Shown here: piece after piece, positions 23,208 to 56,532 of the stretch
How the letters are laid out: each line of letters opens with the position of its first letter
Numbering within the stretch: the stretch's first letter is position 1
Source of the DNA: Escherichia phage KKE7M
Sequence record: PQ356295.1
Strand: one strand, 5' to 3'
DNA length: 64,000 bases
Notes under the pieces: generated by a model
The model's input: only the letters and a program-made list of their open reading frames with translations
Database searches by the model: none
Told to the model about the DNA's origin: nothing
Translations under genes and position numbers: made by a program

Positions 23208-23218
23208 AGGAGTTAAAT

Positions 23219-44279: not shown

Positions 44280-44640
44280 ATATTTCTTGTTATAATTATT
44301 GTATGAAATGATTACGGTATGAAATGATTATTTAGGTAATAGATAGTAAGGTAAAGATTAGATCATAAATAGATAGGATATTAATTATTTAGTAATGTTA
44401 CTAACAATTTAATAGTTACTTTGTGCAACAATTCGATAGATTATAGTTATAGTTTTAAAGGTTAGATAGATTATATTTAGCTTGGTAATGATTTATATTA
44501 GTTATTGTTGTTTAATATAAGGTTATCAATGAGATAGTAACAGTAAGTTATAAATAAAGGTGAAATAATTAGCTTTAATTTAGTTAGATAACTTATTATT
44601 TTATAGGTTAGATGGTCATAAGTTAAGAATGATTATCATT
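44280..44640. repeat. AT-rich iteron-like repeat block (TAGATAG repeats, 14-bp direct repeat GTATGAAATGATTA x2)
   Basis: Read directly; ORF-free. Confidence 0.5.
44624..44638. promoter_or_regulatory. Fur-box-like palindrome TAAGAATGATTATCA
   Basis: 13/15 match to 7-1-7 consensus. Confidence 0.4.
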
Positions 44641-44681
44641 ATTGCATTATGCAGTTTATTGCATAAATAATCAGCTATAAA

Positions 44682-44903: not shown

Positions 44904-44930
44904 AAAAAGAAAGGGCGCTTTGTGCGCCCT
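44904..44930 (-). terminator. terminator hairpin GGGCGC-TTTGT-GCGCCC with flanking A/T tracts
   Basis: Downstream of minus gene ending 44946; same hairpin family at 46082 and 50473. Confidence 0.55.
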
Positions 44931-44945
44931 GGTGTGAAATGTTAT

Positions 44946-45329
44946 TTACTGATAAGCTGGATCGTTTGTTATATCAATCCAATGAGCTAAATTAATTTTA
45001 TTTTTTGCTTTCATTTTCTCGATCAAACGTTCGGCTAATGTCTCGGAACGAATATAAACATGCTCGCTAAAATCTTGCCCCGTTTCCTCGTCGATCATCT
45101 CGCGATATTCAATTTTCCCGATAAACGCATGATTCAGCGCATAAGTTTTACCCGTGTACCAGTTGTGCAAATGAATCTCACATTTATAATCATCGCTATA
45201 ACCTTCGGTTGTTCTAACTTCAACCAGATCGCCTTTAAACACTGATAAGCACCACATAGGATCACGATCTACAGCGCCGTTAAAGTCTTTACCGTTTACA
45301 GTAGCCGCCAGGTTGATGATATTGCTCAT
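44946..45329 (-). CDS. hypothetical protein (127 aa)
   Basis: Start refined to MSNIINL with GAGGAA RBS. Confidence 0.5.
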   Translation of the reverse strand: MSNIINLAATVNGKDFNGAVDRDPMWCLSVFKGDLVEVRTTEGYSDDYKCEIHLHNWYTGKTYALNHAFIGKIEYREMIDEETGQDFSEHVYIRSETLAERLIEKMKAKNKINLAHWIDITNDPAYQ

Positions 45330-45416
45330 GGTGATTCCTCGTTTACCGTTTAAAATGATTTGCCCTACGTGATAAATAATAATGTAAGCGCGATCCGGTG
45401 TCAATAAGAAAGTTAA

Positions 45417-45653
45417 TTATTTTGCATAATCAATAACAGCGCAGATTTTATCATTTACATCTTGTAAATCAAAAGCATAGGCGATCTTACCTTGCAATTT
45501 CCCACGGGTGAAACAGATACGATAAACGCCGTTTTTACTATCCTCTTCTGATTTTAGTATTTTTGCAACCGTTGCAATTAACAGATCATCAGAGTAAGCG
45601 ATAAAGCCACCACGTAAAATAGGTGATTTTTTGAGGATCATGACTTCTTTCAT
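45417..45653 (-). CDS. hypothetical protein (78 aa)
   Basis: ORF; promoter TTGACC-N17-TAATAT upstream (rc of 45702-45730). Confidence 0.45.
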   Translation of the reverse strand: MKEVMILKKSPILRGGFIAYSDDLLIATVAKILKSEEDSKNGVYRICFTRGKLQGKIAYAFDLQDVNDKICAVIDYAK

Positions 45654-46074
45654 TTTCTTTTTCCTGTTTTCGTTTTGGGTATGTTCTACCCTCTAAAAAC
45701 AATATTAAACTGCTATGATTTATCGGTCAATAGATGAGATTGTAAAGATTTGATAGTTTATTCCTTTGATGTTTTGTTGTTTGATAGTTATTAGCTATCA
45801 ATATATAGCGGGATCTTCCGGTGATTATCTTCCCCTGTCCCCAGGTGCCGCCCGTTCCATAATAATAATCAAAAGCAGGGTAAAAGGCAAGATAAAAAGC
45901 AAATTATTTCCTATGTGCTTTAAACGCTCTAAACAGCTTTATAACAGCTTTTTCATCCTGGTAAGGGGATTAATCATCCCTACCTTGTTTAAGCGGTTAC
46001 AGTCGGTTTTAGATGGTTTTACGCCACCTTTACGCCTATTCTTTACGTGTTGTTTCCATCGTGAAAAAAGAATA

Positions 46075-46107
46075 CAAAAAAGGGCGCTTAGTGCGCCCCT
46101 TTCTTTT
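46075..46107. terminator. bidirectional terminator hairpin GGGCGC-TTAGT-GCGCCC
   Basis: A tract before and T-rich tract after. Confidence 0.55.
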
Positions 46108-46115
46108 ACCGTGTA

Positions 46116-46505
46116 TTAATATTCGTTATAATACATCGCTAATTTTTCATCAAAAGCCGATTGACGATCAGCATACTCCCAAAACATTTCCTGATCCTGT
46201 TGGTCATCTTCATCCATCATGTTAAACTGTGCTACTTCCTGGTAAGTGATCGCCATATTATAACGATAGGTGATCTCTTCTGCGATGTTTTCCGGTAAAG
46301 ATGATTCTACACTGTCTAACAGCATATTTAACATCATTTCAGCCGCTTTTTCATCATTATCAAAGCAGTAAGCAGACCATGCCGCATGATGCTTATTCTT
46401 CATCTTTGCAATCAAGCCATTGACTAAAAAAGGCGCTACGTTGTTAACGATACCCTGTAAAGATTGGAATTTTTCAACGTTAGAAACAGAAACCAGGTTG
46501 CGCAT
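46116..46505 (-). CDS. hypothetical protein (129 aa)
   Basis: Start refined; track start ATG lies inside the 5' stem-loop. Confidence 0.5.
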   Translation of the reverse strand: MRNLVSVSNVEKFQSLQGIVNNVAPFLVNGLIAKMKNKHHAAWSAYCFDNDEKAAEMMLNMLLDSVESSLPENIAEEITYRYNMAITYQEVAQFNMMDEDDQQDQEMFWEYADRQSAFDEKLAMYYNEY

Positions 46506-46528
46506 AGTATTTACCTTTTTGATTACCT

Positions 46529-46587
46529 GGCGGGAAACCATTTCCCGCCTACGTGGTAAATAATACCATACTGGGGATCGGTGTCAA
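46529..46587 (-). promoter_or_regulatory. promoter plus 5' stem-loop cassette (TTGACA-N16-TATTAT then GGCGGGAAATGGTTTCCCGCC)
   Basis: Read directly; hairpin 46529-46549. Confidence 0.55.
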
Positions 46588-46593
46588 TACTTT

Positions 46594-46980
46594 TTATTCA
46601 ATATAAATCAAATTATCTTCACCAATGTAAGCATGCACCGATGGCATTAATTTAGCGGCATTTGTTAGGCGGTTCGCCGTGTTAGTGGTGTATATTTCAG
46701 GGCGATCCCAAAAGCCTACGCCGTGACCGTTACGGGTAAAATGTAAATCATTCCCGATCTGGTTTGCTGTAGCGCCGTCGCTCATTGCCTCAGAGATAGC
46801 TGCAACATTGGCATTACAAAAGGCGGTCACATCGCTGGTAATACGTTTCAGGGCGCTAGAAGAAAAATCATAATCGTCTAGATTCTCAATATATTCCCCA
46901 TTGTGATCCGTCGCTGGTTCGGCAAAAATAAAGGCTTCTTTATAGCCGTTGATCATTTCGTTAATGATTTCTGTTTTCAT
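46594..46980 (-). CDS. hypothetical protein (128 aa)
   Basis: ORF. Confidence 0.5.
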   Translation of the reverse strand: MKTEIINEMINGYKEAFIFAEPATDHNGEYIENLDDYDFSSSALKRITSDVTAFCNANVAAISEAMSDGATANQIGNDLHFTRNGHGVGFWDRPEIYTTNTANRLTNAAKLMPSVHAYIGEDNLIYIE

Positions 46981-47192
46981 GCTGTACGCTCAACAATAAT
47001 AATGGTTTGCGGGATCTCGTTTTCTACTACTATCAAGGCTTTTTTCTGCGTGATAGATATCTTTACCCGCTTCAGCGTGGCGGTAAAGTCTTTCATTTCG
47101 TCACGTGGTGTTTTAGTGCAATACCAGATCTCAGGTTTACCTATTTGCAAGCCGCGTAAAAATTCCGTTTTACCTGTCTTATTCGTGATCAT
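46977..47192 (-). CDS. hypothetical protein (71 aa)
   Basis: Start refined to ATG with AAGGTG RBS. Confidence 0.45.
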   Translation of the reverse strand: MITNKTGKTEFLRGLQIGKPEIWYCTKTPRDEMKDFTATLKRVKISITQKKALIVVENEIPQTIIIVERTA

Positions 47193-47202
47193 TTGTTTCA
47201 CC

Positions 47203-47307
47203 TTATCCAATACCGTGGGAAGATAGGATCATGTTAGCCATAGTTGCAATCACTCCAACCGATAACGCCAGGCCCACTATTACAACCGTGAAAATTTTCT
47301 CTAACAT
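47203..47307 (-). CDS. small hydrophobic peptide (34 aa)
   Basis: Preceded by promoter/stem-loop cassette; short. Confidence 0.3.
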   Translation of the reverse strand: MLEKIFTVVIVGLALSVGVIATMANMILSSHGIG

Positions 47308-47325
47308 GATGCTACCCTCATTAGT

Positions 47326-47387
47326 GGGCGTTGCCTTATTGCCCCGCCCTATGTGATACATATTATCAGCTTATTAGCCGTTGTCAA
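47326..47387 (-). promoter_or_regulatory. promoter plus stem-loop cassette (variant hairpin GGGCG...CGCCC)
   Basis: TTGACA (rc of 47382-47387) and CCTATGTGATACAT box. Confidence 0.45.
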
Positions 47388-47492
47388 TTACTTTTTTAAA
47401 CTTCTTTCAAAGAGAAGATCATCGATCTCAGAAACAATAAGCGTTATCAAAGGAATAATAACCGCCGCGCACATCATGGTAAGAATAATCAT
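47388..47492 (-). CDS. small hydrophobic peptide (34 aa)
   Basis: MIILTMMCAAVIIPLITLIV...; preceded by cassette at 47511. Confidence 0.3.
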   Translation of the reverse strand: MIILTMMCAAVIIPLITLIVSEIDDLLFERSLKK

Positions 47493-47510
47493 TTTAGTTC
47501 TCTCTATTCT

Positions 47511-47570
47511 GGCGGGAAACCATTTCCCGCCCTACGTGGTACACTTTACCAGATAACCGCATATTGTCAA
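47511..47570 (-). promoter_or_regulatory. promoter plus stem-loop cassette (GGCGGGAAATGGTTTCCCGCC)
   Basis: Hairpin 47511-47531; TTGACA rc at 47565-47570. Confidence 0.55.
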
Positions 47571-47571
47571 A

Positions 47572-47766
47572 CTATTTTTTACAAGGGATCAGTAAACTTC
47601 TCGCTACTGCTTCACGAAAACCTTTACTTTTTATTAGATCTATTGTTGCAGGGTGACAAGTAAAAGCCTTTGACCATTTTTGATCACCTGGTTTACGGGC
47701 GAAAATGTATACTTCCCCGTCAATTTCATCCCAACGAGTATTGCTTGTTAGTTTTTTAAGCGCCAT
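47572..47766 (-). CDS. hypothetical protein (64 aa)
   Basis: Start refined to MALKKLTS. Confidence 0.45.
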   Translation of the reverse strand: MALKKLTSNTRWDEIDGEVYIFARKPGDQKWSKAFTCHPATIDLIKSKGFREAVARSLLIPCKK

Positions 47767-47789
47767 GATGATTTCTCTTTTAGTTGTGA

Positions 47790-47845
47790 GCGGCACTATT
47801 GCCGCCCTACGCAATACATTCTACCCTATTTATAATTGTTGTCAA
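47790..47845 (-). promoter_or_regulatory. promoter plus stem-loop cassette (GCGGCAATAGTGCCGC variant)
   Basis: TTGACA-N16-TAGAAT then hairpin. Confidence 0.5.
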
Positions 47846-47846
47846 A

Positions 47847-48116
47847 CTATTTTTTCAAGCTCGCCCAGTCAAAACACGGCGGGATCTCGTTAAAACTTGT
47901 GCCCTGTAAAGCACATAATTTTTTAGCAATAGCCGCCGTGACCTGGCGCTGTACGCGCGGATCTGCTACTGATTGGAGAAAGTAGGCGGCTTTATATGTG
48001 ATCATGCTTTCGCCTGTTTCCTTGTTAACATGATGCACTATTTTAGCCTTATCATCTTTTACCAGGGTGTAACCGGATTCGATGGCCTTGATTGCAACGT
48101 CCAATGATATTTTCAT
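47847..48116 (-). CDS. hypothetical protein (89 aa)
   Basis: ORF. Confidence 0.45.
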   Translation of the reverse strand: MKISLDVAIKAIESGYTLVKDDKAKIVHHVNKETGESMITYKAAYFLQSVADPRVQRQVTAAIAKKLCALQGTSFNEIPPCFDWASLKK

Positions 48117-48162
48117 GATTTATCTCTTTATTGATGGCGGGGAATACTCCCCGCCTTATTAA

Positions 48163-48333
48163 TTACTCTTCATCGTCGCCGTTGTAGTATTCAATGCCGT
48201 TTTCATCGGTTACGGTAATATTAACGCCACCGATAGCAACACGATCACGGGCAAACGTCATGGCTTCATTTAAATCTTCAGACCAAAAAATATTGTGACC
48301 TTTGCGCGATACGTAAAACATAGTCGGGATCAT
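48163..48333 (-). CDS. hypothetical protein (56 aa)
   Basis: Below cutoff; preceded by cassette at 48357. Confidence 0.35.
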   Translation of the reverse strand: MIPTMFYVSRKGHNIFWSEDLNEAMTFARDRVAIGGVNITVTDENGIEYYNGDDEE

Positions 48334-48356
48334 GATTTGTTTCTCTTCTGCTGTGA

Positions 48357-48416
48357 GCGGGAAACCATTTCCCGCCCTATGTGATAAACTTTACTACGTT
48401 GTTTGCCTACTGTCAA
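48357..48416 (-). promoter_or_regulatory. promoter plus stem-loop cassette
   Basis: Hairpin GCGGGAAACCATTTCCCGC 48357-48375; TTGACA rc 48411-48416. Confidence 0.55.
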
Positions 48417-48417
48417 A

Positions 48418-48702
48418 TTATTTTTTAATGTTTTGCCCTACAAAATTGATCACATCTTTAAGCTGTTTCTCAGTCATGATCGTGCCTGGTAGTTCCTCTT
48501 TGATTTCTTGCGGTAAATAGATATTACCGCGCCAGGTTAATAAACAACCGTTTTGATCTTCGCAGATAGAATAAGAGAAGATCCACTCATTATCATTCTC
48601 AAGCTCCCAAAAGCACAAAAAATCTTCTTTCCCTAAGTTTTCAACGGTTAAGCATAAGCCGCGACGTGCTGCATAGTTGGAAAGTGCTTTTGTGATCTTC
48701 AT
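48418..48702 (-). CDS. hypothetical protein (94 aa)
   Basis: ORF. Confidence 0.45.
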   Translation of the reverse strand: MKITKALSNYAARRGLCLTVENLGKEDFLCFWELENDNEWIFSYSICEDQNGCLLTWRGNIYLPQEIKEELPGTIMTEKQLKDVINFVGQNIKK

Positions 48703-48721
48703 ATCTTATCTCTTCTGTTAA

Positions 48722-48784
48722 GGCGGGAAAACCATTTCCCCGCTCTATGAGATACAATATACCCCTTATCAGGTGTGCTGTCAA
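48722..48784 (-). promoter_or_regulatory. promoter plus stem-loop cassette
   Basis: Hairpin 48722-48743; TTGACA rc 48779-48784. Confidence 0.5.
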
Positions 48785-49108
48785 TCAATAATCTTTAATA
48801 TTTTCCACATTTACAAAAGTGTGTTTATTTTCTAAGTTTTCGCCGTACCATTGCCCAATGTTGATTTCTGCGGTGCGCAACCAGGACATGCCGCGTTCTA
48901 TCTTTTTGCTTGCAATGTCGATCCGGCTTTTACATAGTGCTTTCGCTTGCAATGTAAAAACACTATTGCCCTGTAATGCTTCCAGGTCATCATGTGCAAG
49001 GCGATACTCTTTAAAGCCTGATTCTATCATTTCAATAGCATCAAGTAAACGCGCGCGATGATAGAAAAAATCAGAGTTATCCAAATAAACACCGATCACA
49101 GATTTCAT
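48785..49108 (-). CDS. hypothetical protein (107 aa)
   Basis: Start refined to MKSVIGVYL. Confidence 0.45.
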   Translation of the reverse strand: MKSVIGVYLDNSDFFYHRARLLDAIEMIESGFKEYRLAHDDLEALQGNSVFTLQAKALCKSRIDIASKKIERGMSWLRTAEINIGQWYGENLENKHTFVNVENIKDY

Positions 49109-49437
49109 AATTTTACCCTTTTGTTTGCGGCCTTTGCCGTTTTCAAGATATAGTTTAAAGCATAACAAAAAATTGTCAAGCCTTTAAAGCGTACAACTAT
49201 AAAACCTATTAAAACACAATGTATAACAACATGGCTATAGTAGCAATACAACATAAAGCCATGCTTGTTTTCCTTCCTTCCTCGTATGCTGGATTTATTA
49301 CGCTATATTGTACGGGAATAATTTTCATGCTGTTTCCTTAATGTCTTAAAACGTGGTTTACAATAGAAACAAGTATACAGAAGAAAAAAGATCCTGACAA
49401 TAAGATCCCGAAAAATAAATGTAAATAGGGCATGGTT

Positions 49438-49740
49438 TTACTCCTTAAAAAAATCATTGACAATTAAACTGATAACGCCCAGCACCAGATCACCAGGTAG
49501 CGCCGCGCTTTCGTTGTTGCTTGTTTGCACTTCCTCACTAGTACCAGCATGATAGATTGCATGGTAAGCAATAGTATAATAACCTTTCGTTATTTCTTTA
49601 AGATTAATGATTAGCACGTTATTTGTTTCATCTTGAAACAATTTAGCGGTGATAGTATTGTTTTCTTTTACACTATCGACTTTTATTGATGGATCATTTA
49701 CACCAGAAAAAAGAAAAAACGTTTTAGCTATGCCGTTCAT
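49438..49740 (-). CDS. hypothetical protein (100 aa)
   Basis: ORF with GGAG RBS. Confidence 0.45.
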   Translation of the reverse strand: MNGIAKTFFLFSGVNDPSIKVDSVKENNTITAKLFQDETNNVLIINLKEITKGYYTIAYHAIYHAGTSEEVQTSNNESAALPGDLVLGVISLIVNDFFKE

Positions 49741-49787
49741 GTAGTTCTCCTTTGTTGTGTGTATCTTATAACGTGCTTTCTATGTTG

Positions 49788-50189
49788 TCAATCTTTTATT
49801 TCGGTGCATTTTGCTAGGGTATACGTTGCAAGTGCTGACACTAGTTTTTCATTGTTACGATCTGCGGCTGTACTGTGTACTTTTTGGATACTTTTTAACC
49901 ACGGTGTAAAATTTTGAGTAGTGAGCACACTGGTAATAATTTCACATGGCACGTTTTCATTTAAGCCATTAACAATAGATTTATCTATTTTTGCCGTTAA
50001 TTGTGTAACAGCACCATAAGCGATCATGTGTGAATCCTCCATGATTTCATCGGGGATCGCATTATTAATGATCATGACGTTTTCCATTGCATCAACGGCG
50101 CTTAATTCTGCTACTGTGGAGGATATCGCCGCGTGAGATGTTCCAACCATGCCAAAAGAGATTAAACCAGCGATCAATAATTTTTTCAT
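49788..50189 (-). CDS. secreted/periplasmic protein with signal peptide (133 aa)
   Basis: MKKLLIAGLISFGMVGTSHA signal-like N-terminus. Confidence 0.5.
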   Translation of the reverse strand: MKKLLIAGLISFGMVGTSHAAISSTVAELSAVDAMENVMIINNAIPDEIMEDSHMIAYGAVTQLTAKIDKSIVNGLNENVPCEIITSVLTTQNFTPWLKSIQKVHSTAADRNNEKLVSALATYTLAKCTEIKD

Positions 50190-50197
50190 TTCTTGCC

Positions 50198-50440
50198 TCA
50201 TATATGTTTTATTGAGATTATATTGTCACTATATACAACGTTTTTCAACGTGTCAATAAAAATTTTATTGTCTTCAATCCCCAGGATCACGCCGCTAGTT
50301 ATAAAGCCATATTGATCACGATATCTGGCGCATAACCTTTGCCCCTGGGCTAGTGCCTTGCTTATTTCGTCTAATTTCATTTTTAAAGCTCCTGTAAAGC
50401 CGTCTAACGTTGATTTATAGGCTTGCCCTGGCGTTACCAT
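50198..50440 (-). CDS. hypothetical protein (80 aa)
   Basis: ORF. Confidence 0.45.
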   Translation of the reverse strand: MVTPGQAYKSTLDGFTGALKMKLDEISKALAQGQRLCARYRDQYGFITSGVILGIEDNKIFIDTLKNVVYSDNIISIKHI

Positions 50441-50472
50441 TGCCTATGGGTAACAAGCCTCTATATAAGCTA

Positions 50473-50497
50473 AAAGGGCGCTTATTGCGCCCTTTTT
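50473..50497. terminator. terminator hairpin AAAGGGCGC-TTATT-GCGCCCTTTTT
   Basis: Perfect hairpin with T tract. Confidence 0.6.
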
Positions 50498-50498
50498 G

Positions 50499-50636
50499 TT
50501 ATTCGTTCCAGTGTCTTTTTGTGCTGCGATCTCTTTTTGTTTTGTTCCGCTTATCGCCTTTCTTGGTAATCTCTTCGTTCCAATTTTTACGCGCCTTGCT
50601 GCGGTTGAATTTTTCGATCTGCTGTGATGCGTTCAT
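50499..50636 (-). CDS. small highly basic protein (45 aa)
   Basis: Lys/Arg-rich; short. Confidence 0.3.
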   Translation of the reverse strand: MNASQQIEKFNRSKARKNWNEEITKKGDKRNKTKRDRSTKRHWNE

Positions 50637-50651
50637 GTTTTTTCCTCTTAA

Positions 50652-51011
50652 TTACGCAACGTTATGCTGTTTTGCCAGGGTTACAATCATGCTTGCAATA
50701 TATAACCAATAATTTTCCCTCTCACGGGTAACGGTTGTTTCTTTGCTTGTTTCTTTTATGTACTTCCATTCAATTAACAAGTGATCGATCTCGTTATAAT
50801 CAAAAGCAATATTGACTTCTGACGGTAAACCTTGTAACCATGAGGCTATTGCCTTGATCACGTTATAATTGTAACGTTTTTGATTATCGGGATACCAGTA
50901 TTCAGAGTTAAAACGGCGCATCAGTTCGGTGATCTTTTCTTTTTCGGTTGTAGTACCATCAAAAGAAATAGCCGACACAATGTAAGTTTTAATTGCTTTT
51001 ACTGATTTCAT
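50652..51011 (-). CDS. hypothetical protein (119 aa)
   Basis: ORF. Confidence 0.5.
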   Translation of the reverse strand: MKSVKAIKTYIVSAISFDGTTTEKEKITELMRRFNSEYWYPDNQKRYNYNVIKAIASWLQGLPSEVNIAFDYNEIDHLLIEWKYIKETSKETTVTRERENYWLYIASMIVTLAKQHNVA

Positions 51012-51031
51012 AATCTTATCTCTTTATTGAT

Positions 51032-51090
51032 GGCGGGAAACCATTTCCCGCCGTTGTTGTTACTTTACTTATAAATGATGCTACTGTCAA
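51032..51090 (-). promoter_or_regulatory. promoter plus stem-loop cassette
   Basis: Hairpin GGCGGGAAACCATTTCCCGCC 51032-51052; TTGACA-N17-TAAAGT. Confidence 0.55.
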
Positions 51091-51097
51091 GCGAATA

Positions 51098-51268
51098 TTA
51101 TTTATTTTTTAACGTTAATGTTCCCAGCTTATCAGCGTGACGCAGACCAGGAAAGATCCATTTTCCTGATTCATCTTTCACCGGGGCTTTAAGCGTAGCG
51201 CCCAGGTTGGCGGCGTTAACTTTACGTGCAACGTTGCGAGCGGCTTCACGGGTGGCGAAAGTGATCAT
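51098..51268 (-). CDS. hypothetical protein (56 aa)
   Basis: Below cutoff; preceded by cassette at 51292. Confidence 0.35.
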   Translation of the reverse strand: MITFATREAARNVARKVNAANLGATLKAPVKDESGKWIFPGLRHADKLGTLTLKNK

Positions 51269-51291
51269 GATGTTTCCTCTTCTCTTTGTTA

Positions 51292-51354
51292 GGCGGTGGG
51301 CTATTCCACCGCCTTAATGAATATAATTTACTTTATTGATGGCCCTGGAGTCAA
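51292..51354 (-). promoter_or_regulatory. promoter plus stem-loop cassette (hairpin GGCGGTGG...CCACCGCC)
   Basis: TTGACT-N18-TAAATT then hairpin. Confidence 0.5.
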
Positions 51355-51372
51355 GGCCATCTAAAAATAAAT

Positions 51373-51714
51373 TTACTCGTTTTCTTCCAGCTCTGAAAGA
51401 TCTTCTTTCACTTCTTCGAGCTCTGTCTGCAATTCTTGGTACTCTTCATCGTCCTCAATATCCAGGCTGCCGATGTAGTCGCTAAATCCGCAGCGGTAAG
51501 CGATAGGATCTAACTCCTTGAGGATACGCGACGGAAGAAAAGAAATGTCTCCGATCATAATTTCGCCGTAGATCTCGTCTAACCATTCATCATAGTTTTC
51601 GTCGTACTTGTCCTCGTCGATTTCAAAGTTATCGATCTTGTTCTCAAGGTCTGCGATCTGTTTTTTCAGCGCGGCGATCTGCATAGCTTTTTCTGCGGCG
51701 GTCATAGTAGTCAT
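51373..51714 (-). CDS. hypothetical acidic coiled-coil protein (113 aa)
   Basis: ORF. Confidence 0.5.
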   Translation of the reverse strand: MTTMTAAEKAMQIAALKKQIADLENKIDNFEIDEDKYDENYDEWLDEIYGEIMIGDISFLPSRILKELDPIAYRCGFSDYIGSLDIEDDEEYQELQTELEEVKEDLSELEENE

Positions 51715-51739
51715 GGTGTTTTCTCCTTTTGTGTATTCT

Positions 51740-51793
51740 GGGAAGTTTTCCCGTTTACGTGTTTAAGTATATCGATTTTAGTTATCTTGTCAA
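51740..51793 (-). promoter_or_regulatory. promoter plus short stem-loop (GGGAA-GTT-TTCCC)
   Basis: TTGACA rc at 51788-51793. Confidence 0.4.
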
Positions 51794-51801
51794 TATTATT
51801 T

Positions 51802-52029
51802 TTAGTTTAACTGATCCAGGCACAACAAGCGATCAACATTTAGATCGGTTAGGCTAATCGTTGGCACTTGGTAGGCTTCGATGTACTCAACGCTCGACCA
51901 TTGCCCAAAGTTAGCGACCGCCCAGCTATTCAAGGAGGAGTGAAGATCATCCCCTTTCTTCTCGGTGATAACTGCTACTACCTGGGATATTCCAACCGTG
52001 CCGGATACGCGAACAATAACGATAGCCAT
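51802..52029 (-). CDS. hypothetical protein (75 aa)
   Basis: ORF. Confidence 0.45.
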   Translation of the reverse strand: MAIVIVRVSGTVGISQVVAVITEKKGDDLHSSLNSWAVANFGQWSSVEYIEAYQVPTISLTDLNVDRLLCLDQLN

Positions 52030-52051
52030 AATGTTAACCTTTCTTTGATTT

Positions 52052-52111
52052 GGCGGGAAACCATTTCCCGCCCTATGCGATAAACTATACCAGATTAAAA
52101 AACGTTGTCAA
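52052..52111 (-). promoter_or_regulatory. promoter plus stem-loop cassette
   Basis: TTGACA-N16-TATAGT then GGCGGGAAATGGTTTCCCGCC. Confidence 0.55.
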
Positions 52112-52120
52112 CTGCTTTTA

Positions 52121-52360
52121 TTACATTCCTACCATAGCGGCGCGGATACTGGTTTTACTGAATTTATAGCCATCTGGCGTAGTATTTTGGCCCATTTCGT
52201 TAAGTAGTGACATCATTTCACGCGCGGCGTTATCTTTATTGTTGTTCACGGCTATAAATTCTTTTGCCATATTATAAAAACCTGGATCGTTATTAATCCA
52301 AAGGCTTACATTCCAATGAGTTTTATTTTTGTGACCGTTGTACATTTTAGATTTAGCCAT
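52121..52360 (-). CDS. hypothetical protein (79 aa)
   Basis: ORF. Confidence 0.45.
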   Translation of the reverse strand: MAKSKMYNGHKNKTHWNVSLWINNDPGFYNMAKEFIAVNNNKDNAAREMMSLLNEMGQNTTPDGYKFSKTSIRAAMVGM

Positions 52361-52384
52361 GATGTTAATCTCTTTTTCAGTGAG

Positions 52385-52442
52385 GCGGGAACTATTCCCG
52401 CTCTCGATATAAGTATTATATGCTTTTTATTCGTGCTGTCAA
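52385..52442 (-). promoter_or_regulatory. promoter plus stem-loop cassette
   Basis: TTGACA-N16-TATAAT (perfect -10) then GCGGGAATAGTTCCCGC. Confidence 0.55.
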
Positions 52443-52448
52443 TGCTTT

Positions 52449-52814
52449 TTATAAATCTTTTTTGCGTTTAACATCGCTTGCATGACTGTATACAGCGATC
52501 CCATTGTCACGGCAAAAACGGGAAAGGTAAGCATAATTTGAAAAGTCTTTACCTTCCAGGTTGATAACCTTGCTAAACTCTTCCAGGGCAACGGTATCAA
52601 AATGATCACCATAACCATATTGAAACGGAACGTTAACGACTTCAATCAGTTTACCGCCGATCTCAACGTCAACCATCAAAGAGAAATAAGTATTACCATA
52701 CGACTTTTGAAACCAGCGACGGGCGCTAATATGTACCGCTTCAATGCTGGATAGCTCAATTTTAGCAGTGTTAGCCAGGGTAGCATAAGCAGAAACATTG
52801 ATATTTTTAGCCAT
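52449..52814 (-). CDS. hypothetical protein (121 aa)
   Basis: ORF. Confidence 0.5.
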   Translation of the reverse strand: MAKNINVSAYATLANTAKIELSSIEAVHISARRWFQKSYGNTYFSLMVDVEIGGKLIEVVNVPFQYGYGDHFDTVALEEFSKVINLEGKDFSNYAYLSRFCRDNGIAVYSHASDVKRKKDL

Positions 52815-52909
52815 AGTCTTTAATCTCTTTTGATTAGTTAGGAGTATTCCCGATAAAAGTTATTATGCTTGTGCTATCGTTCGTTGTCAATAGCACAAGA
52901 CTAAAACTT

Positions 52910-53089
52910 TTAACGATAATCATCATAGGCTTTATTGACCTGGCGAATATAGCATTCAAAAGCTAGATCAATAGATTTATATTCACGGATATAATCACCA
53001 TAGGAAACCACATACATTTCTATAGCTTCCTCATATGCCAGGATGATAGAATCTAAACCTACGATCTCAGTCTTTGCAATAATAGCCAT
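52910..53089 (-). CDS. hypothetical protein (59 aa)
   Basis: Below cutoff; own promoter TTGACA (rc 53149-53154) and TATAAT. Confidence 0.35.
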   Translation of the reverse strand: MAIIAKTEIVGLDSIILAYEEAIEMYVVSYGDYIREYKSIDLAFECYIRQVNKAYDDYR

Positions 53090-53176
53090 GCTTTTATTCC
53101 TTAGTAATGTTTCAATCTATATAAGCATTATAGCTTACTGATTTCAGGTGTCAAGTGATTTTTTATTTCACCTTAT

Positions 53177-53232
53177 GGGGCGTTGCCCCGCTTTATGTGG
53201 TACATATTACGGGGCTTATTTGCATATGTCAA
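53177..53232 (-). promoter_or_regulatory. promoter plus stem-loop cassette (GGGGC-GTT-GCCCC)
   Basis: TTGACA rc 53227-53232. Confidence 0.45.
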
Positions 53233-53235
53233 GCC

Positions 53236-53790
53236 TTACACAATGCAATTTTCATAATTTTTTAGGGCTTGTCTTTTTTCCTCTTCTGTCGGCATGTATG
53301 GCTGGATCTCTTCCTCTTCCAGAGTAGGCATGATTTCTTCCTCTTCCTCCTGGTCGCCCTGGTCTTCCTCTTGCGCTATGGTAACAAGTTTATTGATCTT
53401 CTCCTGGGCTTTAATCAATTTTGCATCTAGCACCATTTTAGCGGTGTTGTATACAGTCCAGGCCATGCGCTTTTCTTCGTATGCCTTATCTAGTGCGGCT
53501 AATTTAGCGGGATACTCTTCCAACACCTTAAAAGCCGGATCAATGTTGTACAAGGGATTATTTTTAGCGTCATCGCTTGGATCTGCGGCGCTTGCAATGT
53601 CAGCGTTACCATTCGCCAGCCATCCAGGACGAACGGATCGCGTCCTGGTGTTGCCGTTGCTCTTTGCCGCTCGATTTCCTATCTGCTCCCCGCTATACCC
53701 TACCATGTGATCGATCATGTCATCTGGTATTATGCGCGGATCATTTGCGTCATGCTTTACCCAGGACTGGATCACATATTCACGCCCCAT
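53236..53790 (-). CDS. hypothetical protein with acidic C-terminal tail (184 aa)
   Basis: ORF. Confidence 0.5.
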   Translation of the reverse strand: MGREYVIQSWVKHDANDPRIIPDDMIDHMVGYSGEQIGNRAAKSNGNTRTRSVRPGWLANGNADIASAADPSDDAKNNPLYNIDPAFKVLEEYPAKLAALDKAYEEKRMAWTVYNTAKMVLDAKLIKAQEKINKLVTIAQEEDQGDQEEEEEIMPTLEEEEIQPYMPTEEEKRQALKNYENCIV

Positions 53791-53791
53791 G

Positions 53792-54052
53792 CTAGTTCGC
53801 CTCTTCTGTTAGTAGTTTACATACCTTAAACATGCTTGCAGCGTCTTTTGACGGTAGCCAGCCTATTCGATACACTCCAGGATCTGGATTAGTTACATCA
53901 GTCAGTTGCGCGTTGCGATGATTAAAAATAGTGTAACCGCCGCCAGCACGGGGATAAACATTATCTTTAAACCTGATAGCGTATCTCGCCAGGTCGAACG
54001 TTGTAGCATGTTCAAAAGCGATCACATTATCAAAAACTTTTAGAAAAAACAA
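53792..54052 (-). CDS. hypothetical protein (86 aa)
   Basis: TTG start after GGGGAGGA. Confidence 0.45.
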   Translation of the reverse strand: MFFLKVFDNVIAFEHATTFDLARYAIRFKDNVYPRAGGGYTIFNHRNAQLTDVTNPDPGVYRIGWLPSKDAASMFKVCKLLTEEAN

Positions 54053-54220
54053 GATTATCCTCCCCAGCGTTTAAAGCCCGTTGCACGGTTATTTTTTAGC
54101 TCTCGTTTTAGTCTCTTGCAACGGTTTACAAGTGCAAACCGTGCCGGAGTCGTAACAGTAGCGCCGTTTTTGGTATGAATACTCATTACATATTGTTTCA
54201 TAAAGTTTTATCCTATATAA

Positions 54221-54273
54221 GCGGGAACAATTCCCGCTTTAAGATAGCTTATCAGGTTTTAGTGCAATGTCAA
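54221..54273 (-). promoter_or_regulatory. promoter plus stem-loop cassette
   Basis: Hairpin GCGGGAACAATTCCCGC 54221-54237; TTGACA rc 54268-54273. Confidence 0.5.
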
Positions 54274-54279
54274 CCGTTT

Positions 54280-54642
54280 TTATTCGTAAATTTTACCGCT
54301 TTCTACCCATACCATAACACGGCGCATGTTATCCCATGCATCTTGTTGCAGATTTAAGGCATGCAATTCTTCCGTGGTGCTCATACCTAGAACGGGCTTG
54401 CTATATGTTACAAAGAGATCGCCAGCATATTCATAAGCCAGGGTAAGATCACATTGAATCATCTTTTTAATCATAGCATCAAGCATCATATTAGCGGCAT
54501 GTTGATCACGTTTCAGCGGTAACGTTGCGATCTGTGTGCGATAGCTTTCGATCCGTGCATCCACTGCATCACGCGAAAGGTTTTTCACGTCATCGCGGAA
54601 AGATACCAGATTAAACATGATAGTATTGATTTGCTTGCTCAT
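54280..54642 (-). CDS. hypothetical protein (120 aa)
   Basis: ORF. Confidence 0.5.
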   Translation of the reverse strand: MSKQINTIMFNLVSFRDDVKNLSRDAVDARIESYRTQIATLPLKRDQHAANMMLDAMIKKMIQCDLTLAYEYAGDLFVTYSKPVLGMSTTEELHALNLQQDAWDNMRRVMVWVESGKIYE

Positions 54643-54664
54643 TGTGTTACCCTTTCTTTGATTT

Positions 54665-54724
54665 GGCGGGAAACCATTTCCCGCCTTATGTGGTATATAT
54701 TACCAGATTATTTTTCAGTGTCAA
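54665..54724 (-). promoter_or_regulatory. promoter plus stem-loop cassette
   Basis: Hairpin 54665-54685; TTGACA rc 54719-54724. Confidence 0.55.
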
Positions 54725-54727
54725 GCC

Positions 54728-55000
54728 TTAAAACAAAAATGCTATATCTTGCGCTTTTAGTGTAGTGTCGATCATTTTCGGGCTTTTATAATCGACAAAG
54801 CGCGCGGTTTTTTCAATAACGAAGCCGAGGTAATCTTGTTTATTGAAATCACATTCTTTTTTAAATGTTTCCCGTGCCACTGTGATCGCTGCGTCCAGGG
54901 ATAAACGTCCATCAATATTGATGTTAGCGAAAGATCCGCCACCGCGCATAGGTTTACCAGTGATACCCTTTACGATCATTGATGCGCTATATGATGCCAT
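54728..55000 (-). CDS. hypothetical protein (90 aa)
   Basis: ORF. Confidence 0.45.
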   Translation of the reverse strand: MASYSASMIVKGITGKPMRGGGSFANINIDGRLSLDAAITVARETFKKECDFNKQDYLGFVIEKTARFVDYKSPKMIDTTLKAQDIAFLF

Positions 55001-55024
55001 GATTATTTCTCTCTTCTGTTATGA

Positions 55025-55080
55025 GCGGCACTATTGCCGCCCTATGTGATACATCTTATCAGATTAAAAAACGTTGTCAA
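55025..55080 (-). promoter_or_regulatory. promoter plus stem-loop cassette
   Basis: TTGACA-N16-TAAGAT then GCGGCAATAGTGCCGC. Confidence 0.5.
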
Positions 55081-55089
55081 GAATATTTT

Positions 55090-55185
55090 TTAGAAAATAA
55101 CAACCGCTACTACAATCCAAAATGGAACGGCTAGAATGATAGCGTTAATCGTTCCAACCGTCAAGCTGTTTTCTTTCTTGATCAT
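55090..55185 (-). CDS. small membrane peptide (31 aa)
   Basis: Hydrophobic; strong promoter TTGACG-N17-TATTAT upstream; short. Confidence 0.3.
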   Translation of the reverse strand: MIKKENSLTVGTINAIILAVPFWIVVAVVIF

Positions 55186-55451
55186 CGTTATCAACCTTTT
55201 ATAAGTAATGTTATTGTGACGGTGGATTGTGGAGATCCTCACCTTTGCCCGTCCTGCATTGCACCCGCCTTTTATTTATTGTCGTTGTGCCTTGCCCCCC
55301 TCGACAAGATGAATAATATGTTATTACCCTGGTAACGTCAACCATTTTTTTAATCTTTTTTCATTTCTTTTTTGCTTGCTATCTATAAAGGAAACGGCTA
55401 TTATCTTTCTACCGCGCCAACCAGGGCGCACATCAAAGAAAGGGCGATACC

Positions 55452-55750: not shown

Positions 55751-55981
55751 TTTTACATACAGAAGAGGAAGCGCCACCCCCACGGCGTAAAGGCGGGGCT
55801 AACATACCAGGGGGGCACTGGTTGGAAGGTTGATCGCCGGTAGCTCGTCTAAAATAAATTTGTAAAGAAATGTAAAGATAAAAATAATCGCTTGCTTTTG
55901 TTGTTGGTTATGCTATTCTTATTGTATGGCGAGGGGACACGGGAGCGCGAGACAAACACCACCCCTGCGCGTTATTCTCTA

Positions 55982-56000
55982 AATGAGAAAAATTCTCATT
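55982..56000. promoter_or_regulatory. palindrome AATGAGAA-AAA-TTCTCATT
   Basis: Perfect inverted repeat related to adjacent Fur-box-like sites. Confidence 0.4.
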
Positions 56001-56024
56001 TGCTAACGATTCTCATTCTCTTAC

Positions 56025-56039
56025 TGAGAATGATTATCA
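56025..56039. promoter_or_regulatory. Fur-box-like palindrome TGAGAATGATTATCA
   Basis: 14/15 match to 7-1-7 consensus. Confidence 0.5.
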
Positions 56040-56053
56040 CTTACATAATTAAA

Positions 56054-56068
56054 TGATAATGATTCTCA
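56054..56068. promoter_or_regulatory. Fur-box-like palindrome TGATAATGATTCTCA
   Basis: 14/15 match. Confidence 0.5.
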
Positions 56069-56076
56069 TTTACAAA

Positions 56077-56091
56077 TGAGAATGATTATCA
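56077..56091. promoter_or_regulatory. Fur-box-like palindrome TGAGAATGATTATCA
   Basis: 14/15 match. Confidence 0.5.
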
Positions 56092-56116
56092 TACGCACAC
56101 CTATAAAAACACGAAA

Positions 56117-56320: not shown

Positions 56321-56532
56321 CTTTTTATAAAAATGATTTTACTGTTCTGTTATAAGTAGTAGTTAAGAGATAGTATGTCTTTTAAAGATCAGATACCATA
56401 GTCCAACAAACAAATTAAATACTTTATTAACAGGGTATAGAATACTACTTACTCTGGATATATTATTCAGAGGGTGAATTTCCGTACATGAAACCCACAC
56501 CCCTTTTTATAAAAATAAAAATTTTCAAAATA

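Follow-up and report, generated by a model that had tools for sequence, protein, structure and literature searches.

Repeated promoter-hairpin cassettes and gene exchange in a hyperplastic gene block of the phi92-like coliphage KKE7M

PeSLs (promoter-early stem-loops) are repeated promoter and stem-loop elements known from the T4-type phages RB49/phi1, PST/T4 and nt-1/KVP40 (Arbiol et al. 2010, PMC2839356; Comeau et al. 2014, PMC4122927), and recombination at PeSLs has been reported in RB49 and phi1 (PMC2839356). We analysed a 64,000-nt window of Escherichia phage KKE7M (PQ356295.1), in which the original prediction had placed a PeSL-like cassette ahead of many small genes. PeSLs and these cassettes have much in common. 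Both are repeated intergenic motifs with an AT-rich tract, a sigma-70-like promoter and a G-run/C-run stem-loop, followed by a conserved leader with a Shine-Dalgarno (SD) sequence and an ATG. Both are concentrated among small ORFans in hyperplastic regions, and in both the indels and replacements of close relatives end in the motif, with crossovers at varied points (PMC2839356, PMC4122927).

KKE7M is not a T4-type phage. It is a Justusliebigvirus, a phi92-like coliphage of the Stephanstirmvirinae, and at this level it is unrelated to the PeSL phages, which belong to the Straboviridae. When we examined RB49 sequences directly, the placement of the stem-loop also differed. In RB49 it lies in the gap that separates -35 from -10 or over the -10 and is a reported terminator, whereas the cassette hairpin lies 3' of the predicted start site, without a T tail, in the stretch from a promoter to its own gene. 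A search of RB49 with the cassette hairpin model gave no match at E<0.2. Membership in the PeSL family is therefore unsupported, and the cassette stem-loop probably does a different job. We found no published description of this promoter-hairpin cassette for phi92-like phages. Our preferred reading, to which we assign a probability of about 0.7, is that the cassettes and their genes form self-contained expression modules, the cassette serving both as recombination homology and as the source of a 5' RNA-stabilising hairpin.

The hyperplastic block and its cassettes

PHROG profiles and the synteny map bear out that the cassettes lie in a hyperplastic block whose small genes are of unknown function. 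PHROG families were matched by 18 of 20 block proteins tested, all without known function. The genes of the block are read leftwards from a divergent control region, and three minus-strand intrinsic terminators split the block into units. The block and its features other than cassettes are as follows.

44946..55341, minus strand: hyperplastic block, about 31 small genes (ORF list, synteny map)
44912..44930, minus strand: intrinsic terminator at the end of the block
45330..45404, minus strand: promoter without hairpin, box kept (TTATCACGTAGGGC); ATG 45329, 127 aa, Gp30.8-like
45654..45730, minus strand: TTGACC promoter; hairpin weak and unrelated; ATG 45653, 78 aa
46076..46104, minus strand: intrinsic terminator, T tail present
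50472..50496, no strand assigned: hairpin of genuine terminator type, AAAAGGGCGC-loop-GCGCCCTTTT

The scan scored the T tail of the hairpin at 50472..50496 on the plus strand only, and this hairpin is of a class distinct from the cassette hairpins. The module at 45407-45725 is missing in Antha and BME3.

All 15 hairpin starts listed originally correspond to GC hairpins on the minus strand, each with a near-consensus sigma-70 promoter ahead of it on that strand. The -35 hexamer is TTGACA in 14 of the 15 and TTGACT in one. Spacers are 16 nt (nine cassettes), 17 nt (five) or 18 nt (one), and seven promoters have a TGn extended -10. The cassette, which also includes an A-rich tract 5' of the -35, measures 80-90 bp and occurs as about 15-20 repeats in one orientation. 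An exact 21-mer hairpin, GGCGGGAAATGGTTTCCCGCC, is present in five copies. In 13 of the 14 ORF-bearing cassettes, 17-22 nt separate the end of the hairpin from the ATG.

c55080, 55001..55080, minus strand: TTGACA-16-TGaTAAGAT, box GTATCACATAG; hairpin GGGCGGCAATAGTGCCGCTC at 55042-55023, minus strand (one G-U pair, z -3.96); ATG 55000, 90 aa
c54724, 54643..54724, minus strand: hairpin GGCGGGAAATGGTTTCCCGCC at 54685-54665, z -3.67; ATG 54642, 120 aa
c54273, 54202..54273, minus strand: TTGACA-16-TGaTAAGCT; hairpin AAGCGGGAATTGTTCCCGCTT at 54239-54219; ATG 54201, 48 aa, first gene of a three-gene operon
c53232, 53155..53232, minus strand: orphan; promoter and weak hairpin GGGGCAACGCCCC, z -0.84; promoter 53154 immediately next
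c52442, 52361..52442, minus strand: TTGACA-16-TATAAT, hairpin GAGAGCGGGAATAGTTCCCGCCTC; ATG 52360, 79 aa
c52111, 52030..52111, minus strand: hairpin GGCGGGAAATGGTTTCCCGCC at 52072-52052; ATG 52029, 75 aa
c51354, 51269..51354, minus strand: hairpin AGGCGGTGGAATAGCCCACCGCCT, z -5.88; ATG 51268, 56 aa
c51090, 51012..51090, minus strand: hairpin GGCGGGAAATGGTTTCCCGCC at 51052-51032; ATG 51011, 119 aa
c48784, 48703..48784, minus strand: hairpin GCGGGGAAATGGTTTTCCCGC, z -2.41; ATG 48702, 94 aa
c48416, 48334..48416, minus strand: hairpin GGGCGGGAAATGGTTTCCCGCTC, one G-U pair; ATG 48333, 56 aa
48117..48162, minus strand: promoterless copy immediately 3' of a stop codon; hairpin GGCGGGGAGTATTCCCCGCC and leader ATCAATAAAGAGATAA, z -4.72; ATG 48116, 89 aa
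c47845, 47767..47845, minus strand: hairpin GGGCGGCAATAGTGCCGCTC; ATG 47766, 64 aa
c47570, 47493..47570, minus strand: hairpin GGCGGGAAATGGTTTCCCGCC; ATG 47492, 34-aa hydrophobic peptide
c47387, 47308..47387, minus strand: hairpin GGGCGGGGCAATAAGGCAACGCCC; ATG 47307, 34 aa
c46587, 46506..46587, minus strand: hairpin GGCGGGAAATGGTTTCCCGCC at 46549-46529; ATG 46505, 129 aa

The cassettes are conserved as units, as expected from the original prediction. Its box is degenerate, being exact in two copies only. Allowing up to three mismatches, ATGTATCACATAGG has 19 matches, compared with 6.9 ± 2.3 in shuffles, and none of 100 shuffles reached 19; 12 of the 19 lie on the minus strand at 45.3-55.1 kb. 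Small ORFs of 34-129 aa directly follow the cassettes, although c53232 has none. The upper size of 184 aa given before was mistaken: that gene is the third in an operon and not directly behind a cassette. On the minus strand, the block has 14 strong GC hairpins with no T tail, and 12 of them are directly 3' of a promoter-like site.

An ATG in the hairpin had been said to over-extend several genes. This is true of one, while two others are over-extended through different starts. In c46587 an open frame runs from the in-frame hairpin ATG at 46541, so that the called protein has 141 rather than 129 aa. The long form (426 nt) is annotated in six of eight public records, and the PHROG profile favours the 129-aa form. 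Over-extension occurs via an in-frame box ATG (47361) at c47387 and via in-frame TTG 47814 and GTG 47796 at c47845. The practical warning on over-called starts is real.

Breakpoints, chimeric cassettes and exchange with rV5

Comparison with 10 relatives gave 22 junction classes in the block. Cassettes cover 19% of the block and contain 22 of the 32 distinct breakpoints (P = 1.9e-9 versus a uniform null). Cassettes also make up 70% of the intergenic space, and versus an intergenic null we detected no enrichment of breakpoints in cassettes by position (18 of 22, P = 0.17), a result that counts against our preferred reading. So do breakpoints outside cassettes, such as 46985/47194 and 50719 in PHB05 and 45874 in cardinal.

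In most junctions, both ends occupy corresponding offsets of two cassettes, and the overlaps are 7-21 nt. A single cassette that stands in a relative for two in the window is a chimera of these two flanking copies, and the crossover is in the -35, the box or hairpin arm, or the start codon. Cassette c54273 is the end point of a 1052-bp difference from muut, c47845 is a deletion end point in BME3 and PHB05, and the insertion points of muut, BME3 and PHB05 are at 52406-52423 in c52442. A 171-bp difference from six relatives has its crossover in CATAGGGCGGG at c47570. The cassettes are mosaics of shared sub-modules: c54724 and c52111 have a 35-nt hairpin and leader in common, and c52111 and c55080 a 21-nt -35 and spacer. 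Identity tracts between copies are short (15-35 nt), which tells against the preferred reading. The synteny map contains translocations between genera.

One exchange reaches beyond the subfamily.

51327..51794, minus strand: window-specific module with 90% identity to rV5 (Vequintavirus, other subfamily)

One end of this module is in the -35 of c51793 and the other in the -10 of c51354. In between come a weak hairpin, ACGGGAAAACTTCCCAG, a 113-aa gene (51714..51373) and a 3' hairpin, GATGGCCTTGACTCCAGGGCCATC, with the next -35 enclosed in it. It stands in place of a 296-bp module found in 8 of 10 aligned Justusliebigvirus loci; at this site ESCO8 has 446 bp and muut has nothing. c51354 is chimeric, with an rV5-type 5' half and a Justusliebigvirus-type 3' half. 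Between the window (64 kb) and 60 kb of rV5 there are four nucleotide matches, all in the block, and three cover modules that vary among Justusliebigvirus genomes. A repeat of rV5 type, TAAATTTATTTTTAGATGGCCTTGACTYCAGGGCCATCAATAAAGTAAA, has three copies in the rV5 early region; the window has one (51375-51327), which borders the exchanged module.

The breakpoints in cassettes, the chimeric cassettes and the rV5-like module, whose ends lie in promoter cores, support the earlier proposal that cassettes mediate shuffling. End points of indels, of replacements and of the exchange between subfamilies are found in cassettes. Judged from these genome comparisons, the cassettes are sites of gene gain, loss and swap, even across phage subfamilies.

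The role of the hairpin

The hairpin starts 9-12 nt 3' of the -10 and is therefore predicted to be transcribed. Across 13 loci, 66 of 85 unique leaders have a GCGG core that starts at nt 13 past the -10. What is conserved in the hairpin is its structure: next to the GCGG core, variants have G-C, C-G or U-A as the first inner pair and A-U, G-C or G-U as the second, and stem and loop lengths vary. Folding predicts leaders with a hairpin at the 5' side and, behind it, an A-rich SD region free of pairing, with z-scores of -3.2 to -5.9 for 13 of 16; two hairpins are weak (c53232, z -0.8; c51793, z -1.3). We counted 29 G-U pairs in the gene sense versus 11 in the antisense, an asymmetry owed largely to one recurrent position in related copies, which limits its value for our reading. 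In a scan of 12 Stephanstirmvirinae loci (L001-L010, L012, L013), GC hairpins without a T tail after a -10 numbered 8-12 per locus on the gene strand and 0 on the opposite strand; rV5 (L014) had three.

In our proposed mechanism, the block would constitute the hyperplastic, promoter-proximal stretch of an early transcription unit. Each module opens with an A-rich tract and a sigma-70 promoter that is near consensus and often has an extended -10; next, in this order, come a semi-conserved box at the predicted start site, the hairpin, an unstructured A-rich leader with an SD sequence and a small ORF. The hairpin, a stable G-arm/C-arm structure predicted to start 3-5 nt from the transcript 5' end, most likely acts as a 5'-terminal stabiliser of early mRNA. 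We infer early timing, transcription of the hairpin and stabilisation from promoter geometry. At the extreme 5' end of the primary transcript, the hairpin would shield against 5'-end-dependent decay by RppH/RNase E, enzymes that are slowed by base-paired 5' ends (PMC3997798, its references 92-95). The ribosome site would stay open, and any newly acquired ORF would therefore be strongly expressed early. As the genome comparisons show, crossovers use the 15-35-nt identity tracts between copies and the sigma-70 hexamers themselves. Whole modules are therefore deleted, inserted, replaced or moved with neighbouring genes intact, and this traffic includes exchange with Vequintavirus phages. The hairpin is not obligatory, since eight strong block promoters lack a strong hairpin (55341, 53154, 52890, 50256, 49791, 49179, 45730 and 45404), and this weighs against the proposal.

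It is unlikely that the hairpins behave as true PeSLs, that is, as terminators or attenuators that insulate the module from upstream transcription as in RB49/phi1. PeSL stem-loops terminated transcription in lacZ assays (PMC2839356), the cassettes have the same G-run/C-run polarity, and a block hairpin at 51361-51338 encloses a -35 in RB49 fashion. However, none of the 15 cassette hairpins has a T tail on the minus (gene) strand, canonical terminators with A and T flanks are used elsewhere in the same genome, and the phage terminators form a separate class, AAAGGGGC..GCCCCTTT. The hairpin is fixed 3' of the -10, rather than inside the promoter as in RB49. Efficient termination at a hairpin that separates a gene from its own promoter would silence the gene, so that it cannot be an efficient terminator. 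We also find it doubtful that the hairpin is a site for a phage or host protein controlling early expression, either on RNA (a repressor, processing or boxB-like antitermination site) or as a DNA operator at +4 to +24. In favour of this, the GCGG...CCGC core hardly varies, the location is typical of operators and nut-like sites, and the early region of relatives encodes several putative transcription factors. Yet stem length (5-10 bp), half-site spacing and loops (TGG, ATAG, TTG, TAG, CAA, AAC, AATAGC) all vary, so that a generic structure fits better than a specific site. The block has no boxA-like motif, and G-U pairs and compensatory changes favour RNA pairing over a fixed DNA half-site.

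The remaining alternatives concern recombination. The cassettes could be passive, with selection removing illegitimate products that cut genes and with independent selection for strong promoters producing the similarity. The intergenic null (P = 0.17) fits this idea, as do some deletions that extend between start codons or end within genes, with 1-7 nt of overlap. We consider it improbable, because most junctions pair matching cassette positions with 7-21 nt in common and a clean chimeric product, non-adjacent cassettes share sub-modules, and the box and leader are conserved too without a known consensus requirement. A highly improbable reading is that the hairpins are selfish REP- or MITE-like palindromes or targets of a site-specific recombinase that mobilises genes as in integrons, an idea raised for PeSLs by Arbiol et al. 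(PMC2839356). Although the palindrome recurs at every gene-module boundary and relatives have genes for a DprA-like protein and a putative site-specific recombinase, crossovers occur in the -35, the spacer, the box, the hairpin arm, the -10 and the start codon rather than at a single site. Moreover, the hairpins have one orientation and a fixed promoter distance, and only one copy is promoterless.

Comparison with known systems

The rV5-type repeat, for which we found no published description, resembles the cassette as a repeated boundary element with a promoter and stem-loop. Unlike the cassette, its stem-loop encloses the -35, a PeSL-like layout. The T7 gene 10 leader has a 5'-terminal stabiliser hairpin, and the 5' stem-loops of ompA and papA are 5'-terminal mRNA stabilisers too (references 92-95 in PMC3997798). 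In all three, as predicted for the cassette, the ribosome-binding region is open and lies behind a stable hairpin within a few nt of the 5' end. Each of them is a single case with experimental proof, whereas for the cassette we infer stabilisation; here, one design recurs about 15 times in 10 kb and doubles as recombination homology. Integron gene cassettes, with their attC hairpins, are likewise single-gene units bounded by a repeated imperfect palindrome, with gene content that differs greatly between relatives. They have no promoter, and an integrase mobilises them at a defined site within attC in its folded single-stranded form, whereas each phage module has its own promoter and its crossovers are scattered over the cassette. 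Gene shuffling at these cassettes is a variant of a mechanism hitherto reported only from T4-type phages.

Cassette layout and gene content of the small-gene block

About 31 small genes lie in a row on the minus strand of the window at 44.9-55.4 kb. We scanned for paired TTGACA-like and TATAAT-like hexamers and folded the next 45 nt. This promoter and fold scan yielded 15 units of common layout, and all 15 hairpin coordinates of the original prediction proved correct.

Parts of a cassette, in order along the gene strand
-35 hexamer: TTGACA in 14 of 15 units, TTGACT in 1 of 15
Spacer: 16 nt in nine units, 17 nt in five, 18 nt in one
-10 hexamer: TAnnnT, with TGn before it in 7 of 15 units
Semi-conserved box: consensus GTATCACATAG
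Hairpin: a G-arm and a C-arm
Leader: A-rich, bearing AAGAG or GGAG
Start codon: ATG, present in 14 units and lying 17-22 nt past the hairpin in 13 of them

Upstream of the -35, information content is ~1 bit per position in an A-run around -45 to -40 (131 cassette sequences), and this A-rich tract is part of the cassette unit. The box, allowing up to three mismatches, occurs 19 times in the window vs 6.9 +/- 2.3 times in shuffles, with 12 of the 19 matches on the minus strand of the block. Cassette-type hairpins within the 64 kb are confined to 46.5-55.0 kb. Several units depart from the full layout.

Variants of the cassette
48117-48162: hairpin and leader without a promoter
c53232 (cassettes are numbered by window position): cassette without an ORF, running into the next promoter
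Eight sites: strong promoters with a weak or no hairpin
45404: one of these eight promoters, with the box kept and the hairpin lost

When block proteins were compared with PHROG families, 18 of the 20 tested found a match, every family being of unknown function; these scans assigned no function to any block protein tested. An Rfam scan of the whole window at the gathering threshold matched no family, and a tRNA scan found none. Three very small ORFs encode strongly hydrophobic peptides (47388-47492 and 47203-47307, 34 aa each; 55090-55197, 35 aa) and are likely to be real small membrane proteins. A full cassette is present at two of the three, and several public annotations miss them.

It had been proposed that an in-frame ATG in the hairpin causes several genes to be called too long. 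This is true of one gene, extended from 129 to 141 aa by ATG 46541, and not of the others. Elsewhere, an ATG in the box at 47361 turns a 34-aa gene into one of 52 aa, and TTG 47814 over-extends another. Of eight public records, six (Antha, muut, alia, JohannJBalmer, BME3 and EC.P2) give the gene with the hairpin ATG its 426-nt long form, and ESCO8 and Paula give it 390 nt. The short form matches a 129-position PHROG profile over its whole length.

The phage is not of the T4 type; its closest records are Justusliebigvirus, in the Stephanstirmvirinae. Against Justusliebigvirus genomes the block shows ~95-97% identity with coverage of only 60-94%, in several pieces. Matching phi92-like Stephanstirmvirinae include ESCO8, Antha, BME3, muut, Paula and JohannJBalmer. 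The homologous block of phi92 heads to the right genome end, ~1.1 kb short of the terminal repeat. In JohannJBalmer the block begins at a divergent non-coding region, and beyond it lies a long stretch of tightly packed small genes without cassettes. We counted 12 window-type cassettes in phi92, 18 within 11 kb of tuntematon and three in rV5. A 24-mer of box and hairpin, scanned against IMG/VR, matched a single contig.

Two non-coding stretches flanking the block carry repeats of their own (43743-43761, 44625-44643 and 55980-56097). These comprise Fur-box-like palindromes GATAATGATNATCATTATC with up to three mismatches (three found vs 0.07 expected), three copies of TGAGAATGATTATCA, and a 19-nt inverted repeat, 95% complementary, at 56053-56092. 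Iterons, an origin and iron-responsive regulation of the divergent early promoters are all possible explanations for them. The divergent intergenic region 56114-56334 holds three ~70-nt direct repeats (AAATTGAACTTTTCATTTT...AAAACTTTAAATAA), and repeat_regions are annotated at the matching place in muut and tuntematon.

Some public records deserve comment. More than 20 unannotated 'Campylobacter phage' records of 135-150 kb (MG0656xx, host label C. jejuni) are ~95% identical to these coliphages; the host label is probably an error, the genomes being those of coliphages. Enterococcus phage heks (MT119359, 39.7 kb) contains a 66-nt, 85% match to the cassette at 544-609. The source and host strains in this record suggest a wastewater collection shared with muut and alia, and the match may reflect chimeric assembly or contamination.

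A conserved hairpin beside the promoter

We folded leaders with transcription assumed to start 7-8 nt past the -10. With this start, predicted leaders begin with a hairpin preceded by 2-5 unpaired nt, and the SD and AUG are unpaired. Fold z-scores were -3.2 to -5.9 in 13 of 16 leaders, and two hairpins were weak. The stem starts 9-12 nt past the -10. Because extra outer pairs in the folds confound the spacing between the -10 and the first paired base, we dropped that measure and located the hairpin by its GCGG core. In 78% of unique leaders (66 of 85) this core starts at nt 13 past the -10.

Promoter-proximal hairpins of the window and 12 related loci come in 58 distinct forms, whose stems measure 5-10 bp and whose loops measure 3-6 nt. 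A covariance model of eight hairpins was too sequence-specific, missing the GGCGGCAATAGTGCCGC type and matching opposite-strand palindromes. Its alignment was therefore not used for pair statistics, and pairs were counted anchored on the GCGG/CCGC core. The first pair inside the near-invariant GCGG...CCGC core is G-C, C-G or U-A among variants, and the second is A-U, G-C or G-U. Sequence changes among the variants, and pairing is kept. G-U pairs number 29 in the gene sense vs 11 in the antisense, an excess that leans on one recurrent position and suggests pairing at the RNA level. All 12 Stephanstirmvirinae loci scanned carry 8-12 strong GC hairpins without a T tail directly 3' of a -10 on the gene strand, and none on the other strand. 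Three such hairpins are present in rV5.

The strong hairpins of the window split into two distinct classes.

Terminator class: AAAGGGGC-loop-GCCCCTTT with A and T flanks, scattered across the 64 kb
Terminators of the block itself, same class: 50472-50496, 46076-46104, 44912-44930
Cassette class: 46.5-55.0 kb only, with A-rich tails on the gene strand, e.g. AAATCAAAG and ATAACAGAA

At the sequence level, an intrinsic (Rho-independent) terminator is contradicted for the cassettes by these A-rich tails, with no T tail or U-run following any cassette hairpin on the gene strand, and by the separate class of genuine terminators. Moreover, the hairpin lies between a promoter and its own ORF, so efficient termination would silence that gene. 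We read the cassette hairpin, on these grounds, as not being a terminator. A lambdoid nut site, which would combine a conserved boxA with a boxB hairpin of conserved loop, was likewise rejected: no boxA-like motif occurs in the block, and the loops vary in sequence and length. In the Paula record (L001, LR865361), several hairpins at cassette positions, shortly before start codons, bear the label 'terminator' on the anti-gene strand (for example 4494-4519, 5082-5105, 7391-7418 and 7652-7675 in locus coordinates). These wrong-strand labels look as if automatic terminator prediction had picked up palindromes.

We infer instead a protective role. Early in infection, host RNA polymerase would start ~3-5 nt upstream of the hairpin, and the resulting 5'-terminal hairpin would shield the transcript from 5'-end-dependent decay while leaving the adjacent ribosome site open. 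Among phages, the T7 gene 10 leader offers a precedent for protection by a 5' hairpin. RNase E and RppH act more slowly on base-paired 5' ends (PMC3997798 and its references 92-95). A literature search for start-site or transcriptome data for these phages found none. In T4, host mRNA is the target on which Srd stimulates RNase E (summarised in PMC4980113), and gp11 of rV5 has been described as Srd-like (PMC3606486); tblastn of the window and fetched loci found no Srd homologue. It is speculation that an Srd-like stimulation of RNase E provides the motive for 5' protection.

A broader reading, which we consider improbable, is that the cassette is a plug-and-play adaptor shared by Stephanstirmvirinae, Vequintavirinae and perhaps RB49-like Krischvirus, with the GCGG...CCGC hairpin maybe serving as a mark for a phage factor. 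If the adaptor reading were true, an ORF behind a cassette could switch between unrelated genomes and be expressed at once. If the hairpin were a mark, it could protect transcripts during host mRNA destruction or target recombination to these sites. RB49-like Krischvirus shares early genes with rV5.

Exchange of modules among relatives and with rV5-like phages

We aligned 43.5-57.5 kb of the window to ten Justusliebigvirus loci, using blastn per locus, and found 22 junction classes inside the block. Cassettes make up 19.4% of the block and contain 22 of the 32 distinct breakpoints (binomial P = 1.9e-9). Against a null restricted to intergenic DNA, 70% of which is cassette, the count of 18/22 was not significant (P = 0.17). 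The register of the junctions is more specific evidence than breakpoint position. At most junctions the two ends sit at corresponding distances from the -35 of their respective cassettes, such as 17 and 19 nt or -2 and 4 nt, and pure deletions overlap by 7-21 nt. In three-way alignments, the single cassette of a relative equals the window's upstream copy at its 5' side and the downstream copy at its 3' side.

Crossover positions in the window
47354/47526: in CATAGGGCGGG, six phages
45406/45726, 47585/47839 and 54281/55334: -35 region
52814/53083: ATGGCTA start codons

Cassettes within the window are also mosaics of one another. The cassettes c55080 and c52111 have a common 21-nt -35 plus spacer and different hairpins; c52111 and c54724 have a common 35-nt hairpin plus leader and different spacers. 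A protein-cluster synteny map showed a conserved backbone with presence/absence variation and one allelic replacement, and some genes are differently placed in Phapecoctavirus tuntematon. Events without cassettes exist, such as those of PHB05 at 46985/47194 and 50719. Gene shuffling through cassettes, part of the original prediction, is supported: cassettes mark exchange points, and relatives carry chimeric single copies joined at matching offsets. These data show that promoter-leader-ORF modules are units of gain, loss, replacement and inter-lineage transfer, and that crossovers occur in short shared cassette tracts, sigma-70 hexamers included.

Only one module of the window is absent from all 12 Stephanstirmvirinae loci: a 113-aa gene (51714..51373) whose product shares 87-98% identity with a protein in ~110 Vequintavirus (rV5-like) genomes. 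Window 51327-51794 matches rV5 DNA at 90% identity. This match runs from the -35 of c51793 to the -10 of c51354, and zones common to the window, rV5 and Justusliebigvirus relatives lie at 51793-51774 and 51337-51327. When the 64-kb window was compared with 60 kb of rV5, only four segments matched, all four in the block, and three of the four cover modules that vary among Justusliebigvirus genomes. These alignments offer direct evidence for exchange across subfamilies.

At its 3' end the transferred module carries hairpin GATGGCCTTGACTCCAGGGCCATC (51338-51361), with the next -35 hexamer as its loop. The hairpin is part of a 50-nt element with three copies in rV5 (locus L014).

18820-18869: 50-nt element of rV5, copy 1
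22566-22615: copy 2
23194-23245: copy 3

We found no published account of a -35-in-loop repeat in Vequintavirus. At the position of window 51338-51773, relatives encode a 71-aa 'phosphoribosylpyrophosphate synthetase' (for example alia_113, ESCO8_00153 and BME3 WWY66246). This label is implausible for 71 aa and seems to have spread from one record; the phi92 homologue is annotated as a predicted E2-like fold. In the rV5 early region, several small genes carry annotations that liken them to hypothetical proteins of RB49, and the block in the window ends with a Gp30.8-like gene. The rV5/phi92-like and T4-type phages thus have early ORFans in common, which fits a shared pool of exchangeable modules.

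Significance and comparison with PeSLs

Gene shuffling by regulatory cassettes would not be peculiar to T4-type phages. The second group, with another cassette design, would be widely used therapeutic coliphages (phi92-, phAPEC8- and rV5-like). Our results give a concrete account of turnover in their ORFan-rich early regions, which likely hold host-takeover and anti-defence genes. They also explain gene transfer between subfamilies, in that crossovers fall in promoter cores. In practice, some genes are given wrong starts by gene callers and in public records, the calls running into the cassette, and at least one record has hairpins annotated as terminators on the wrong strand. As compact parts that combine a strong promoter, 5' hairpin and RBS, the cassettes form a natural library, and they show where instability can be predicted in engineered phages of this kind. 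The rV5 genome paper gives sigma-70 promoters and extended -10 elements, and the promoter-hairpin cassette is absent from it. Two recent Stephanstirmvirinae papers mention neither promoters nor hairpins. The eight papers found that use 'PeSLs' with 'phage' cover T4-like phages or cite that work.

PeSLs, the promoter-early stem-loops of T4-type phages, are defined as sigma-70-like promoters that follow an AT-rich tract and are combined with a G-run/C-run stem-loop and a leader containing SD and ATG (PMC2839356; PMC4122927). Their stem-loop can sit in the spacer, overlap a box, precede the -35 or fall just ahead of the start site (PMC2839356), and it terminated transcription in reporter assays (PMC2839356; PMC4122927). 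Recombination of neighbouring motifs into mini-circles is also counted among the traits of PeSLs. Like PeSLs, the window cassette is a repeated intergenic motif with a sigma-70-like, predicted early promoter and an AT-rich tract upstream of the -35. It is likewise concentrated in a hyperplastic region of small genes of unknown function whose content varies among relatives. Indels and replacements relative to close relatives end inside cassettes, a position that alone is not separable from intergenic DNA (P = 0.17).

The two differ in the placement of the stem. On direct reading, typical units of the RB49 hyperplastic region are TTGACAGGGGATCACCGATCCCCTATAAT, with the stem within the spacer, or have the -10 as the stem's loop. 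RB49 stems thus lie between or over the boxes, whereas the window stem begins 9-12 nt past the -10. The only PeSL-like stem placement in the block is that of hairpin 51361-51338, and the -35-in-loop layout of the rV5 50-nt element is also PeSL-like. The covariance model of eight hairpins had no match in RB49 at E<0.2. PeSL stem-loops terminate upstream transcription, whereas the cassette hairpins have no T tail on the gene strand, a difference seen at the sequence level only. PeSLs belong to T4-like myoviruses and the window to Stephanstirmvirinae.

From this comparison with PeSLs and RB49, it follows that the window cassette shares PeSL design and behaviour and not stem placement. The proposed match to PeSLs therefore stands for composite design and genomic behaviour and falls for stem-loop placement and lineage; the role of the stem-loop is probably different as well. 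Taken together, these data point to a known evolutionary principle at work in a new phage lineage, with its own stem-loop placement and direct evidence of cross-subfamily exchange.
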